Shown here in pieces: positions 43,554 through 50,139 of a stretch of 64,000 nucleotides of DNA. The notes below the pieces were generated by a model, which saw nothing but the letters and a program-made list of their open reading frames with translations, was not told where the DNA came from and did not search any database. Each line of letters begins with the position of its first letter. Position 1 is the stretch's first letter. The stretch is from Candidatus Bathyarchaeota archaeon (lineage in GTDB: Archaea; Thermoproteota; Bathyarchaeia; Bathyarchaeales; Bathycorpusculaceae). The DNA lies in NCBI GenBank assembly GCA_963702095.1, contig OY969706.1, positions 352,001-416,000 of the forward strand. Direction: 5' to 3'. The translations under genes and the position numbers were made by a program.

Positions 43554-46500
43554 ATGAAGCAAAAATACATAGTTTTAGCGTTGTTCTTGGTTTTGTTTGT
43601 AAGCAGCGTTTCAGAAAGTATCACTCTCTTTATTGGCAATTCAGTTTTCGCTCAAGGAGGCACTTCATCCTCTTGGCTAGACCCTGCTTGGAGTAACCGC
43701 CAAGCCATAACAGTAGATAACTCCCATAACGCAAACAGCCTCACAGACTACCAATTACGCTTCAACGTAACCTACGCTGACGCTATGAAAAGCGACTTCT
43801 CGGATTTGCGTTTCACATCAGGCGACGGAGTAACCCTTGTTCCCTTTTGGCTTGAAAGCTATGTGCCCTCTGTTTCCGCTGTCGTCTGGGTAAAAGTTCC
43901 TAACGTCGCAGCTTCAGGCACAACAACCCTCTACATGTACTATGGCAACCCCGCTGCAACCAGCATTAGCAATGGAAAGGGTACCTTTGATTTCTTCGAC
44001 GACTTCGAAAATCCTGCCTCAGGCTGGATGACAAAGCAGTCGATTCCTCACACCACTGCAGATGCAACTGCAGCCGTATACAACGGTAAACTGTACGTTT
44101 TTGGTGGGTACGATAAAACTGCAACCGACATACTTGACATAGTTTATGAGTATAACCCTCAGACGAACACTTGGGCAGAGAAAACCAATATGCCTACTGC
44201 CCGATGGGGTGAAATCGCTGTCCAATACAACGGTAAAATCTATGTTTTCGGCGGACAAACCAACCCAGCTGTTGACCTCCAAACGGGTTCCCCGCAGAAC
44301 ATCAACAAGTACTCCAACAACCCATTAACCGCCATTCCACAGTATGGTGCCTTAGGAAACGTTCACCCAGACGTCGTCTATTTCCCAGAGGGCCAAGACG
44401 GCTACAAATACTGGATGACCTACACCCCCTACACCTATGGTGCGCTCTCCGAAAACCCAAGCATTGTTAGAAGCAACGACGGCTTAACTTGGACAGACGC
44501 TGGCATCACCAACCCTGTTATTCCCCCAGGAACTGCTGGTGCATTCAATGACTTAGAAAACCCTGATCCAGACTTCCTCTATGTTGCAGACTACAATAAG
44601 TGGTTCATGGTTTGGGACGGCGGCAACGCAGCAACCGATAGCAGGAAAATAGCGTTAGTGTATTCAACCGACGGAAAAACTTGGACGCAGTACAATGGCA
44701 TTGCAGTAAACGGCAACATTGATCCAGTGATTCTTTCAGGAGATGACTCAAACGGGCAAGCTTGGGAGAGACTGGGTTCGGTGTCAAAAGTCAGCGTGCC
44801 CACGTTGTACTATGAAAACGGCGTTTTCTACCTGTACTACGCTGAAGAGGCAAGCGGCAACAACCGTGGACAAGTCGGTTTAGCTACCTTCACATGGAAT
44901 GACGCCTCCAACAGCGTCACAAACCTAGTGCGCAACCCCAACAACCCGATAATCAACCTGCCCGAAGATAGCACTTTTAAAAGCGGCATTGGCCACCTCG
45001 ACATCGTCAAGAGCCCTGATGGCAGCCAATACTGGATGTACGGCGTCAGAGAAACCGTGGCTTCCTCAGTTTTTGAACTCGTCCAGCTTTCGTCATCAAC
45101 AAAGACAACATGGAACTATGACGGAGTAGTCCTATCGCCTGGTGCTTTAGGAAGCTGGGATGGACTCTATATTTACCGTTCCGCACCAGTCGTCGACCAA
45201 ACTGGAAAAGTGGTCTTATTCAACAATGCGATGCAACTCTACTACAGTGCTTGGACATCAACCTCTGTTCCCAGCATCGGTTTAGCATCGGTGATCCCAT
45301 ACTACGGGGTCTTAGGAAACCCCTATGCCGGGCAACCCAACGTGTGGGATGAGGCAATCCAAATGACCAAATTCCGCTTCGACGGCGTCACAGGAACATA
45401 CACTGGCTCCATTTCAGTCTATTTATCTTCAGTAGCAAGCGCCTCCAATAACAAGGTAGTAGTGGGAATCTACGATCAAAACCTCCAAAAAATCGCTGAG
45501 AGCACCGAAATAGTCGGTTTAACCACTGGATGGCAAACCTTCAACTTAACAGGCACGTTTTCACTCGTCGCTGACACCGATTACTACCTTGTCTCCCACG
45601 CGCCACAGGGTAACCAAGGAGCATTCATCGATGGAAGTCAACCGCAAAGCAGTTGGAAAACAAGTCCCTACACCGGAACATTGCCCGCCTCGCTTTCGCC
45701 GGTTTCAAGTCAAGAAAACGGCGTCTACGCAATATTCTGTACCTACACCAACCCAGCGATGAACACGGCAGCAAAGATACCGCCCCTGTCTTTGCCTGTA
45801 CCACACACAAACGAAGTTTACGACCCCTCAACCGACACTTGGACAACAAAAAGCGATGTACCAGCAGACATTGCCTACCAAGGTTTAATGGGCGTGTTGT
45901 TTGGAAACCAAATTCACCTCTTCTACAAGAACTACCACTACGTCTATTTCACAGAAAACGACAGCTACGTCAGAAAAGCCGATGTTCCCACCCAGAGGAC
46001 ATGGGGCACCTGCGCTGTTGTAGACAACAAAATCTACGTCATCGGCGGCTACTCATACAGTGAACCAACTGGTGCTTCCAACGTAAACGAAGTCTATGGC
46101 CCAGCGACCGACACTTGGACAACCAATGCACCTCTGCCTGTAAGCCTAATCGGGACAACCCGGGAAAACCCTGTTATCGACGGTAAAATCATCGTTACCC
46201 ACGGGTTAGACGCTTTAGCAGGTAACTTCCATGTGGAAACCTACGTTTACGATCCAGCAACCAACGCGTGGGTTGAAGGGTCTTCTGCAGGTTATCCTCG
46301 TGACGGAGTCGCATGTGGCGTCATCGCAGACAAACTCTATGTGGTCGGTGGCAGAGCAGACATTCCAGGACCCTATGGACTTGACTACAACGAAGTGTAT
46401 GACCCCAGCCTCGACAACAGAGATGGCAGTTTATGGGCTGTCTCCAGTAGCGCAAACGTCTATGCTGACTCATCCGCTAAATACCAGGGCAACTACGGCT

Positions 46501-47243
46501 TATTAATCAACGACAACTATACCAGCAACTCACAGTATGCAGAACACAAAATCAGCTTAGACCAAGCTGTGGTTGACTTAGACTGGGACATAACTAACGA
46601 TTTAGGAATAAGTTCGCTGCAGCCTCAGGGAAGAATCTTGTTTGTTGACCCTTCACTGGCACAATATGGAACACTATACCTGTATAACGATGCGGGTACG
46701 CCGAGTTTCAAATGGTACACAGGCGCATTCACAACGTTGCAATCCGCCAATTGGAACACTTGGTATCATATCTCGATTGTTTTTGCTGGCAGTAGCAGCA
46801 AAGTCATAATCAACGGCGTTACCTATCTGGTAACTGCGGAGTCGGTGACCGGTGACAGAATCCGATTAGACACAAGCAATGCGGAGGTAACCAGAGCCTA
46901 CTTTGACAATGTTAACGTCCACAAATACACTGCTGTAGAACCAACAGTTGCTTTTGGTCTAGCAGAGTCACAATCACCACAGGCGACAACTACACCCACA
47001 GCCACCCCGACATCCAACCCCACCACACATCCACCTACTTCCCCGACAACCCAACCCGCCGACAAGCCAACACCTACAGCCACACCTCCATCGCCGACAC
47101 CAACCCCCACACCCAGCTCATCGGACAACGGAGCAAGCGTACCCATTGAGGTAATCATTGCAGCCTCCGCTTCAGTAGCCGTTGCCGCAATATTTGGCGT
47201 CGCTGCCACAATAATAAGCCGCAGGAAAAAACCGAAGATGTAA
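43554..47243 (+). CDS. Large surface protein: DUF2341 + Kelch repeats + GH43-like propeller + beta-sandwich + PT linker + TM
   Basis: DFSDLRF..VWVK.P..YMYYGNP (DUF2341), VFGG/VIGG Kelch blades, S.DG.TW Asp boxes, C-terminal TM and RRKK. Confidence 0.8.
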   Translation: MKQKYIVLALFLVLFVSSVSESITLFIGNSVFAQGGTSSSWLDPAWSNRQAITVDNSHNANSLTDYQLRFNVTYADAMKSDFSDLRFTSGDGVTLVPFWLESYVPSVSAVVWVKVPNVAASGTTTLYMYYGNPAATSISNGKGTFDFFDDFENPASGWMTKQSIPHTTADATAAVYNGKLYVFGGYDKTATDILDIVYEYNPQTNTWAEKTNMPTARWGEIAVQYNGKIYVFGGQTNPAVDLQTGSPQNINKYSNNPLTAIPQYGALGNVHPDVVYFPEGQDGYKYWMTYTPYTYGALSENPSIVRSNDGLTWTDAGITNPVIPPGTAGAFNDLENPDPDFLYVADYNKWFMVWDGGNAATDSRKIALVYSTDGKTWTQYNGIAVNGNIDPVILSGDDSNGQAWERLGSVSKVSVPTLYYENGVFYLYYAEEASGNNRGQVGLATFTWNDASNSVTNLVRNPNNPIINLPEDSTFKSGIGHLDIVKSPDGSQYWMYGVRETVASSVFELVQLSSSTKTTWNYDGVVLSPGALGSWDGLYIYRSAPVVDQTGKVVLFNNAMQLYYSAWTSTSVPSIGLASVIPYYGVLGNPYAGQPNVWDEAIQMTKFRFDGVTGTYTGSISVYLSSVASASNNKVVVGIYDQNLQKIAESTEIVGLTTGWQTFNLTGTFSLVADTDYYLVSHAPQGNQGAFIDGSQPQSSWKTSPYTGTLPASLSPVSSQENGVYAIFCTYTNPAMNTAAKIPPLSLPVPHTNEVYDPSTDTWTTKSDVPADIAYQGLMGVLFGNQIHLFYKNYHYVYFTENDSYVRKADVPTQRTWGTCAVVDNKIYVIGGYSYSEPTGASNVNEVYGPATDTWTTNAPLPVSLIGTTRENPVIDGKIIVTHGLDALAGNFHVETYVYDPATNAWVEGSSAGYPRDGVACGVIADKLYVVGGRADIPGPYGLDYNEVYDPSLDNRDGSLWAVSSSANVYADSSAKYQGNYGLLINDNYTSNSQYAEHKISLDQAVVDLDWDITNDLGISSLQPQGRILFVDPSLAQYGTLYLYNDAGTPSFKWYTGAFTTLQSANWNTWYHISIVFAGSSSKVIINGVTYLVTAESVTGDRIRLDTSNAEVTRAYFDNVNVHKYTAVEPTVAFGLAESQSPQATTTPTATPTSNPTTHPPTSPTTQPADKPTPTATPPSPTPTPTPSSSDNGASVPIEVIIAASASVAVAAIFGVAATIISRRKKPKM

Positions 47244-48562: not shown

Positions 48563-48922
48563 TTACTCGATGGGTTCTTCATCAACGTTGAGGAACTGCT
48601 TGATTTGGCTCATGATCTTCTGGAGTTCTTTTTCTGTTAAGGGGGGATCATAGGGTATACGGAGGACATCCCAACCCTGCATTGTAAGGAGGTCGTCGAT
48701 TTCCTCGTCTTTTTCTAGTTGCTTATCTTTTTTGTGCACTGGGTTGCCGTCTAAGTAGACGATTTTACGTTTCTCCATCCAGCAGAAGTCGGGTATGGTG
48801 GATTTTAAAATGATTGGTTGCTGGGTAACCATGCCGCCTGTTAATCCGGAAATGCTAAGTGCCTTGAAGACTTCGATTTCTGCTCGGCTGACTTTAGGGT
48901 GCATCCTCTCTTTGTAACTCAA
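48563..48922 (-). CDS. Vsr/DUF559-like PD-(D/E)XK endonuclease
   Basis: S.AE, PDF, DG..H, D..L...GW.VLRI. Confidence 0.7.
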   Translation of the reverse strand: MSYKERMHPKVSRAEIEVFKALSISGLTGGMVTQQPIILKSTIPDFCWMEKRKIVYLDGNPVHKKDKQLEKDEEIDDLLTMQGWDVLRIPYDPPLTEKELQKIMSQIKQFLNVDEEPIE

Positions 48923-48989
48923 ATTAGTTCACAAAGTATTGAGGTGCTACTAAGCGCCTAATAAATTCTATACAACAAACCACATAAAG

Positions 48990-49162
48990 CAGTATGAGAA
49001 TACTGTAACCAAAAGTAAGCCTAGCGGATCAGTTACTGTTATCCCGCGACTCGAACCAAAAATAGGTCCCTAATCCTTCCCTTAGGGGCTGAAGCGATTC
49101 GAGCCCAGTTTAACTGCTGACCCGCCAAGCATGGGTGTACCTCTTGGATGGCTATTTCTCGC
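48990..49162 (-). ncRNA. Candidate rod-shaped ncRNA (about 170 nt)
   Basis: 14-bp helix 49117-49130/49019-49032, fully paired only on the minus strand (G-U); nested stems; TTTATACT at 49184-49191. Confidence 0.5.
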
Positions 49163-49275
49163 AAGATAACTACTATTTTGACAAGTATAAATGACCTTGT
49201 GACTGTGTCCAGTAGACAACAAACAGGCAAGTGTTATTATCAAAAACTAGAAGTCAAATGGTTGTTTTTGACTTT

Positions 49276-49497
49276 TTAATGCATTATTTGTTGTTCCTCT
49301 TCGAGGAATGCTGGGATAAAGGTGACGCCGTCATCTTTCTGCTGTGCATTGGGCTTGTATCGCTGGGGTTTTTGGGGTTTGCGTTTGGAATCAAAAGCAT
49401 AAATTAACCAACCTATGAAACCGATGAAAACGAGTGCTGGAAGCATAAGCAACACTAAGCCTTTGCTGCGTCTAATTTTTTTTCCGCCGGTCACCAA
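49276..49497 (-). CDS. Small single-TM protein
   Basis: Basic N-terminus, one TM helix, polar tail. Confidence 0.55.
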   Translation of the reverse strand: MVTGGKKIRRSKGLVLLMLPALVFIGFIGWLIYAFDSKRKPQKPQRYKPNAQQKDDGVTFIPAFLEEEQQIMH

Positions 49498-49560: not shown

Positions 49561-49901
49561 TCAAAATCTATGTCTGCATGGGGTATGCCATAATTCGGCG
49601 ATGTCTTTCCAAGTCATGTAGTCAGAGCAGCTTGTGTAAGAGGTGACTATGGCAAAGGTGGCGTCGAAGCCAAAGCCTTGCAGTACTGGGAGGGCGTCGA
49701 GTTGGCTTTTCCATCCGTCGTCGAAAACTATGTAAACCACCTTCTCTGGTTGGCTGAAGGCATATTGGGCGAGTAAATTTGGTTGGGTACAGCAGGGGCG
49801 AAAAGCACAGCCATAAACGTGTTATCGTAGTCTACGGCGATAAAACCCCCGACCAGCAGTGTTAATGTTACCGCCAACGCTATTGTTCCTTTGTTCTTCA
49901 G
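49561..49901 (-). pseudogene. Polysaccharide deacetylase (NodB) fragment, frameshifted and truncated
   Basis: Signal-peptide frame (KNKGTIALAVTLTLLVGG), then a shifted frame VVYIVFDDGW..ATF.IV..YMTW..I.EL ending early. Confidence 0.65.
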
Positions 49902-50061: not shown

Positions 50062-50139
50062 GGGGCCTTCGGCTAGCTTGGTCTAGGCTTGTAGACTTGG
50101 GCTCTATAGACTCCGGTTCAAATCCGGGAGGCCCCACCA
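50062..50139 (+). tRNA. tRNA-Pro(TGG), CCA encoded
   Basis: GGGGCCT/AGGCCCC acceptor, GTAGA-CTTGGGC-TCTAT anticodon arm, TCCGG-TTCAAAT-CCGGG. Confidence 0.93.

Follow-up and report, generated by a model that had tools for sequence, protein, structure and literature searches.

A stretch of 64,000 nucleotides from Candidatus Bathyarchaeota archaeon (assembly GCA_963702095.1, contig OY969706.1, positions 352,001 to 416,000 of the forward strand; this whole stretch is called the window here) carries the gene of a rod-shaped structured non-coding RNA (ncRNA), whose conserved core of 158 nt occupies 49162-49005 on the minus strand, downstream of a TATA box and directly upstream of a gene for a small DUF559 protein. 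This RNA, named paralog A, belongs to a rod-shaped RNA family that is restricted to one lineage, namely five genera of one family of Bathyarchaeia (Bathy-6-type), and that is uncatalogued in Rfam 15, the catalogue searched. A previous reading made from the sequence alone had proposed a rod-like ncRNA of about 170 nt at this place, and a stand-alone structured ncRNA is indeed supported by the 158-nt core, its promoter, its covariation and contigs from RNA libraries. With slightly better than even confidence we regard it as an independently transcribed RNA that acts in trans, with a scaffold common to the family and a recognition module that varies between its members. Apart from the universal RNAs, archaea have to our knowledge yielded few structured ncRNA families, and Bathyarchaeia rank with the most abundant uncultured archaea of sediments and soils.

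Fold, covariation and gene of the RNA

The segment described by the sequence-only reading (48985-49175, minus strand, 191 nt) has a minimum free energy (MFE) of -66.8 kcal/mol with a z-score of -3.39 and 1/200 shuffles as good, and for the core of 158 nt we obtained -59.5 kcal/mol, a z-score of -4.16 and 0/200 shuffles as good. All helices of the end-to-end fold proposed before are found in the MFE structure, including CCAAGAG/CUUUUGG, GCUUGGCGGGUCAG/CUGAUCCGCUAGGC with its 14 bp, GUUA/UAAC, the region of UCGAA/UUCGA and CCCUAA/UUAGGG. Only its outermost helix GAGAA/UUCUC is made of non-conserved sequence, as it lies past the conserved 3' end (GUUAC, 49005), where the relatives are unalike, and is thus outside the conserved RNA; its exclusion leaves the core of 158 nt. 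The closing helix is better read as AGAGGUA/UACUUUU than in the pairing given originally. Three G-U pairs in the long helix had been taken to fix the orientation; these pairs are present and the plus strand folds worse (-52.0 kcal/mol, z-score -2.11). Across 29 aligned sequences G-U pairs are abundant, with GU in 27, 26, 29 and 25 of them at four pairs, and being strand-specific they fix the strand as minus.

A blastn search found one copy of the element in its own genome of 2.94 Mb, and the element recurs in 28/36 other genomes of the genus but in 0/24 genomes of other families of the order. A first covariance model, built from the window sequence and its closest relative with the predicted structure of the window RNA, aligned 29 loci end to end. 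In this genus alignment of 45 pairs 93.4% of the cells are standard pairs and 21/45 pairs changed on both sides, with 0/500 shuffles reaching any of five pairing measures; in controls with the 3' partners slid by 1-3 columns 30-47% were paired and 5-9 pairs showed a double change. Since the alignment had been fitted to the model, each homologue was also folded alone, and the single-sequence MFE folds contained P2 in 26/29, P3 in 24/29, P4-P5 in 22/29 and P6 in 25/29 cases (for the helices see Table 1). The changes on both sides within the genus fall on 10/14 pairs of P4-P5, 4/6 pairs of P6 and 5/14 pairs of P2, and on 0 pairs of P1. Across orthologues and the paralogs described below they are found in 6/7 pairs of P1, 7/12 pairs of P2 and 38/44 pairs altogether, as compared to 14-19 pairs in the slid controls. 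A second covariance model (R2) matched 100/120 genomes of the genus, including 65/73 of good quality, and gives the window RNA 164.4 bits. The sequence-only reading had suggested looking upstream of nuclease homologues for covariation and for a variable, guide-like segment: compensatory pairs are there, and in place of a variable segment we found a single-stranded 5' tail that is close to invariant, its mean column conservation over 29 species being 98.9% versus 62-76% in the distal helices.

The TATA box TTTATACT was located where it had been seen before, and its CATTTATA is invariant or nearly so in 29/29 aligned loci. The approximately 22 nt between the box and the RNA are variable and conservation sets in abruptly at GCGAG in the 29 loci, a spacing that places the probable start of the RNA near G49162. 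Metatranscriptome contigs near-identical to the RNA were found in two soil runs from two studies: one contig of run X6 covers 49008-49157 with 2 mismatches and one of run X8 covers 49019-49151 with 1 mismatch at a depth of 13, and other X8 pieces correspond to the conserved 5' part of the RNAs of relatives. None of the RNA-library contigs joins the RNA to DUF559, and the coverage of the region is far more even in two DNA runs than in the RNA libraries. In the search of sequencing runs at most 0.12 of the words of the query were found per run. The conserved TATA box, the variable spacer and the contigs confined to the RNA support that the RNA has its own, independently transcribed gene. A transcript and covarying homologues were the two things on which the earlier proposal had been made to depend; covarying homologues exist and the contigs give a hint of transcription.

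As to the 3' end, the U4 run in the 3' side of P1 is a possible archaeal termination signal. The hairpin CAGUA-UUCUCA-UACUG before a U-rich tract, noticed earlier as a terminator candidate, is present at 49005-48990 and may be a back-up terminator. Relatives carry unrelated hairpins at this position, followed by T5-T7. None of the RNA-library contigs extends into this hairpin, which is weak evidence because the contigs cannot show RNA ends.

Immediately upstream of the TATA box lies the element CAGTCACAA, for which the variants CAGTCACAAG, CAGTCACATA and CAATCACAA were found upstream of paralogs in other genomes. The element, often following TGT..G, stands directly before the TATA-like boxes of rod-RNA genes and of several protein genes. 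As it precedes the TATA-like boxes of about 10 other genes in the same genome, protein genes included, it belongs to promoters in general and is not peculiar to rod RNAs; it could be an upstream promoter element of this lineage or the site of a transcription factor.

Other elements were considered for the RNA. A pseudoknot between the tail and the U-loop (AGAAAUAG with CUAUUUUU) is present in the window sequence and was rejected, as its loop side varies uncompensated in relatives when inspected by eye. A leader peptide was rejected as well, since the Shine-Dalgarno-like GAGGU and the AUG in the tail open a frame of 16 codons only and the AUG is ACG, AAG or AAA in many homologues. Inspection of the RNA by eye showed no K-turn, bulge-helix-bulge or GAAA-receptor motif, and a self-search of the RNA gave no internal or genomic repeats.

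Table 1: Features of the rod RNA gene and its DUF559 neighbour (positions in the window) and two other paralogs of the genome
Feature	Position	Strand	Remarks
Promoter-proximal element CAGTCACAA	49205-49197	-	immediately upstream of the TATA box
TATA box of the RNA gene, TTTATACT	49191-49184	-	conserved in the aligned loci
Conserved RNA core, paralog A	49005..49162	-	fold, covariation, model matches, RNA-library contigs
5' tail GCGAGAAAUAGCCAUCCAAGAGGUACACCCA	49132..49162	-	31 nt, near-invariant, mostly single-stranded; nt 19-25 are the 5' side of P1
P1, closing helix AGAGGUA with UACUUUU	49138-49144 with 49011..49017	-	predicted fold
P2, GCUUGGCGGGUCAG with CUGAUCCGCUAGGC	49117..49130 with 49019-49032	-	14 bp
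Distal rod	49038..49114	-	P3, P4-P5, central bubble, P6
P3, GUUA/UAAC; P4-P5, CUGGGCUCGAAUCG / UGGUUCGAGUC-CGG	within 49038..49114	-	
Central bubble, U-rich 3' strand UAUUUUU	49058-49064	-	U-run invariant or nearly so, kept in paralogs
P6, apical hairpin CCCUAA/UUAGGG	49068-49087	-	
Variable hairpin CAGUA-UUCUCA-UACUG, then U-rich tract	48973..49005	-	hairpin itself 49005-48990
DUF559 promoter AATTTATTAGG	48967-48957	-	second TATA-like box, between RNA and gene
DUF559/Vsr-fold small endonuclease-like gene	48563..48922	-	119 aa, TTG start at 48922
Paralog B (L099)	G000:C1:247405-247560	+	flanked by a holin-like gene (119 aa) and a DUF5518 gene
Paralog C (L130)	G000:C1:1332185-1332345	-	CU-rich apical loop; between Toprim-domain and ParB_N-domain genes

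The family and its distance from known RNAs

Weak full-length matches of R2 (27-37 bits) at second sites of genus genomes and in a sister genus are paralogs of the window RNA. They have in common the promoter type, the closing helix, P2, a GUUAA/UUAAC helix, the U-run at the 3' side of the bubble and a CCUACUUUU 3' end. P2 is the signature of the family, as its sequence UUGGCGGRUCA/GAUCCGCCAA is kept in all paralogs, and the 3' end CUACUUUU defines the family together with the promoter, P1, P2, GUUAA/UUAAC and the U-run. All these elements are carried by the window RNA. The paralogs differ in the 5' tail and in the apical part, which in the type named C is one large loop with the conserved CU-rich sequence CUCUCUCCUCGCUCUUCC.

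A trimmed core model across the paralogs (R3), which contains 17 pairs only and gives weak echoes of 22-35 bits on the reverse strand, finds three members in the own genome, the window RNA with 84 bits and two others, with 77 and 63 bits, at G000:C1:247439-247546(+) and 1332194-1332310(-). Paralogs of the types C and D are sited between a Toprim-domain gene and a ParB_N-domain gene, an arrangement that recurs in at least 8 other genomes of the genus, in some cases including two divergent RNA genes separated by about 200-800 nt, and a type from genus g26 lies between the genes of a ketol-acid reductoisomerase and an NTPase. At least one R3 match is present in 103/120 genomes of the genus and two to five in 68/120, numbers that the reverse-strand echoes may inflate. 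In an evenly drawn sample of the rest of the taxonomic family 10/150 genomes from 5/70 genera have a member, and 0/135 genomes of the class outside this family have one. Two to five diverged paralogs per genome on one scaffold suggest a modular RNA-protein system, and its restriction to five genera of one family suggests that it is of recent origin.

Over the whole window only a transfer RNA (tRNA) reaches the gathering threshold of Rfam 15. A permissive search of 48800-49400 returned only snoR114 on the other strand (14.5 bits versus a gathering threshold of 45, E 9.9), a chance match, and on eight paralog loci nothing relevant was obtained. That the RNA is neither signal recognition particle (SRP) RNA nor RNase P RNA nor a tRNA, as had been judged before, agrees with the lack of an Rfam match at the RNA and with the positions of the genome's copies of SRP RNA (G000:C1:1951085-1951400, 150.7 bits) and RNase P RNA (1389120-1389415, 177.5 bits), both outside the window. 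In the search listings of the literature there was nothing in print on such an RNA for Bathyarchaeia, and two exact-pattern scans of the IMG/VR viral contigs gave 0 matches. We regard the family as new, well supported and lineage-restricted, and it offers a defined RNA for pull-down experiments from Bathy-6 enrichments.

Y RNAs are Ro60/Rsr-associated small RNAs of animals and some bacteria. Like the rod RNA they have paired 5' and 3' ends, one helix conserved in sequence, pyrimidine- or U-rich internal loops and a U-rich 3' end, and they too occur as several diverged paralogs per genome, each with its own upstream promoter. The conserved helix of Y RNAs binds Ro, carries a bulged nucleotide and sits in the stem made by the two ends; in the rod RNA the helix conserved in sequence is P2. 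The rod RNA differs from them in the lack of an Rfam match, its size of about 160 nt, its conserved 5' tail of 31 nt and its archaeal host. A Y RNA with a Ro partner was rejected, as the TROVE profile PF05731 gave 0 matches in the own genome, which is 90% complete, and did match the Deinococcus and Bacteroides controls. 6S RNA (RF00013 and relatives) likewise forms a rod, about 160-190 nt in size and made up of a closing stem, a central bubble and an apical stem, and is encoded by a stand-alone gene that is kept beside an unrelated protein gene (ssrS-ygfA in bacteria). In contrast, the rod RNA shows no Rfam match, has a long conserved single-stranded 5' tail and a bubble of 7-9 nt against about 10 nt, much smaller than that of 6S RNA; we also know of no sigma-70 holoenzyme in archaea for which a 6S RNA could mimic a promoter.

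With the Sm/Hfq-dependent small RNAs and the archaeal small RNAs with C/U-rich loops, for example from Methanosarcina and Haloferax, the rod RNAs share a promoter of their own, U-rich tracts and a structured body that bears conserved single-stranded elements, and the CU-rich loop of type C could pair with purine-rich ribosome-binding sites. Unlike a typical small RNA the rod RNA has a far more extended scaffold that is common to a multi-paralog family, and the stretch conserved in paralog A measures 31 nt. Type III toxin-antitoxin systems (ToxIN-like) resemble the window locus in that a nuclease gene follows immediately after an RNA gene and a terminator-like element separates the two, but their antitoxin RNA consists of short tandem repeats that the toxin processes, and both genes are driven from one promoter. 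Here a single rod RNA without repeats and two promoters are found, and the nuclease gene is conserved, single-copy and also present without the RNA; the absence of tandem repeats and the separate conserved promoter of DUF559 speak against such a system. A guide RNA of the omega-RNA or tracr type is not supported either, in view of the near-invariant tail, the occurrence of DUF559 without the RNA and the paralogs away from DUF559.

The DUF559 neighbour and the role of the RNA

The gene downstream of the RNA would encode a stand-alone endonuclease-like protein, as had been recognised before: its residues 5-111 match positions 8-108 of the 109 positions of Pfam PF04480 with an E-value of 2.6e-8 (34.1 bits, cut-off 20.6). 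A profile of DUF559 weakly matches the PDB entries 3hrl ('endonuclease-like protein', E 0.027) and 3r3p, and the single sequence found no match in the PDB. Invariant columns are S12, E15, L22, T42, D45, D58, G59, H63, D72, G83, V86 and Y91. The gene is co-oriented with the RNA as described, at a distance of 82 nt to its start codon instead of the 70 nt given originally, and this spacer measures 74-91 nt in 24/29 loci and 142-460 nt in the other 5/29. It also possesses the TATA-like element of its own that the sequence-only reading had pointed out, a box of the form (A/T)TTATTAAGG, which in genera and species without the RNA is conserved about 30-40 nt before the M-S-Y-K start of DUF559. The start region of the DUF559 message, ACAAAGAGAGGAUGCACCC (48904-48935, minus strand), resembles and does not complement the part CCAAGAGGUACACCC of the tail (49132-49147, minus strand); this was seen by eye and may be chance.

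Paralog A was found directly upstream of and co-oriented with DUF559 in 29/29 and in 38/38 loci, corresponding to 52 distinct genomes, and upstream of 46/55 DUF559 loci of named metagenome-assembled genomes (MAGs), while the outer flanks vary, with a small membrane-protein gene in 16/29 and a thioredoxin reductase in 7/29 loci. DUF559 orthologues of 59-85% identity are present in four genera, in 12/12 sampled genomes of the window genus g1, 4/4 of g23, 6/6 of g26 and 2/2 of g28. At 19 DUF559 loci without the RNA and at the 9 remaining named-MAG loci R2 and R3 detected no family RNA even with filters off. The orthologues without the RNA (59-78% identity) come from g23, g26 and g28 and also from three genomes of the window genus (G006, G036, G061). 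In g23 another gene separates DUF559 from the membrane-protein gene, which is already present upstream, showing that the neighbourhood is older than the RNA. Thus, the adjacency of paralog A and DUF559 looks most simply like inherited synteny, which explains it equally well as a common function, and on present evidence DUF559 is a neighbour and not part of the function of the RNA. The idea of an RNA-nuclease module or attenuator, which the sequence-only reading itself had called unproven, is mostly contradicted by the promoter of DUF559, the 28/28 DUF559 loci without the RNA and the paralogs at unrelated loci. The locus is therefore also a cautionary case, as perfect adjacency to a nuclease in 52 genomes can be explained by inherited synteny.

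In the function that we favour, the parts common to the paralogs (P2, GUUAA/UUAAC, the internal U-run and the CUACUUUU 3' end) would form a protein-binding scaffold, with an Sm-like protein that binds the U-runs as one candidate partner; the genome does contain LSm genes. A paralog-specific single-stranded element, the 31-nt tail in A and the CU-rich loop in C, would give each RNA its own target in trans, either by base-pairing or by protein recognition. Scaffold RNAs like the Y RNAs or the Sm/Hfq-dependent small RNAs follow this principle. Paralog A would have arisen in an ancestor between the small membrane-protein gene and DUF559, and the synteny would then have been inherited.

Several points weigh against this function. 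The searches made identified neither a partner protein nor a target of the RNA, and the binding of an Sm protein is a guess from the U-runs alone. Complementarity of the tail to the ribosomal RNA operon, SRP RNA, RNase P RNA and the neighbouring messenger RNAs was no better than that of shuffled tails, and 20-nt antisense stretches of the tail with up to 3 mismatches gave, in 41 genomes of the genus, the RNA gene itself and sporadic matches but no recurrent near-perfect site. Moreover, 31 invariant nucleotides far exceed the usual seed of a small RNA, so that a protein or tertiary contact fits at least as well as base-pairing. The strict adjacency to DUF559 in 52/52 genomes is compatible with a functional tie. 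The alignments used for the pair counts were fitted to the structure of the model and lean towards it, and related sequences can outscore shuffles even without a structure. Regarding transcription, an X6 contig that stems from a relative extends through the promoter as far as 49232, and as the contigs show neither ends nor strand they are a hint of expression and not a proof; DNA carry-over or read-through could still be their source.

Further searches with the tail gave little. A genome-wide seed-and-duplex scan found scattered matches of 17-18 nt only, as expected by chance, and duplex prediction among the three paralogs of the genome and with the 3' end of 16S RNA was uninformative. An identical 20-mer with 3 mismatches to the antisense of the tail occurs at G003:C1:90007-90026, G013:C35:4531-4550 and G031:C5:90161-90180. 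It would form 17 Watson-Crick pairs and one G-U pair with the tail and lies 3 kb from the RNA gene in G031, and no counterpart within 4 mismatches was found in the genome of the window.

The main rival to a trans-acting scaffold with a recognition module is a protein sponge or a polymerase- or enzyme-binding decoy of the 6S or Y RNA type, in which rod and bubble would mimic a nucleic-acid substrate without any base-pairing target. The paired ends, the central bubble, the sequence-conserved helix, the several paralogs, the pyrimidine-rich loops in some of them and the U-rich 3' end would suit such a decoy, as would the unsuccessful search for an antisense target with the tail and the precedent of 6S RNA beside an unrelated gene. 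We consider it rather unlikely, as there is neither an Rfam match to 6S or Y RNA nor a TROVE/Ro gene in the genome, the bubble is much smaller than that of 6S RNA, the RNA polymerase of archaea is not known to use a sigma factor that could be trapped, and conservation peaks in a 5' tail for which 6S and Y RNAs have no counterpart. A direct tie to the nuclease, with paralog A binding, guiding, inhibiting or regulating the DUF559 endonuclease as guide, decoy substrate or RNA antitoxin to a nuclease toxin, appears improbable to us. It would account for the constant position of A while the outer flanks vary, and two other paralog types are flanked by the nuclease-type domains Toprim and ParB_N. 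However, DUF559 orthologues with their own promoter exist without any family RNA in g23, g26, g28 and part of g1, no nuclease gene adjoins paralog B or the g26 type, a variable guide would be just the reverse of the invariant tail and the spacer tolerates insertions of 142-460 nt in 5/29 loci; in addition, rearrangements will seldom separate two genes whose spacer is short. Given the nuclease-type neighbours of C and D, a bolder version survives at low odds, in which rod RNAs would be RNA subunits of nucleic-acid machines, each with an adjacent nuclease-type protein (DUF559 for A, Toprim and ParB_N for C and D), the scaffold recruiting the enzyme and the tail or loop selecting the substrate. 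Although we give little credence to it, if true archaea would have an RNA-directed nuclease system of a new kind.

Two further explanations would do without a separate RNA function. As a cis-acting leader or attenuator of the DUF559 message the RNA would be on the correct strand, 82 nt upstream, and the intervening hairpin with its U-tract could be a conditional terminator. This is very unlikely, as the promoter box of DUF559 lies between RNA and gene and is conserved also without the RNA, paralogs B and C have no nearby co-oriented downstream gene, no RNA-library contig bridges RNA and DUF559 and the spacer is unconserved and contains the insertions mentioned above. A relic of a mobile element, such as an inverted repeat resembling a miniature inverted-repeat transposable element (MITE), or a chance palindrome without RNA function would also give a rod-like fold, the reverse strand of the loci weakly scores with R3, and at 1-2.5 kb upstream there are a tRNA gene and a fragment of an integrase. 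But each paralog is single-copy, paralog A keeps a fixed syntenic position in 52 genomes, viral contigs gave no match, and strand-specific G-U pairs, compensatory changes, an invariant unpaired tail and a conserved promoter would not be expected from such a relic, which makes this explanation largely refuted and the least credible of those considered.

Surroundings in the window

Upstream of the RNA we found a 59-aa fragment of a polysaccharide deacetylase (49561-49740, minus strand; Pfam E 4.6e-4, below the cut-off), the tRNA gene (50062-50136, plus strand, 49.9 bits) and a 50-aa fragment like the C-terminal part of an archaeal phage integrase (51605-51757, minus strand; E 2.9e-4, below the cut-off), which together may be the scar of an integrated element. 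At 43554-47243 on the plus strand lies an open reading frame (ORF) of 1229 aa, whose translation shows an N-terminal signal-like segment, YVFGG/YVIGG repeats reminiscent of the Kelch type, a long Pro/Thr-rich linker and a C-terminal hydrophobic anchor, so that its product looks like a large surface protein.

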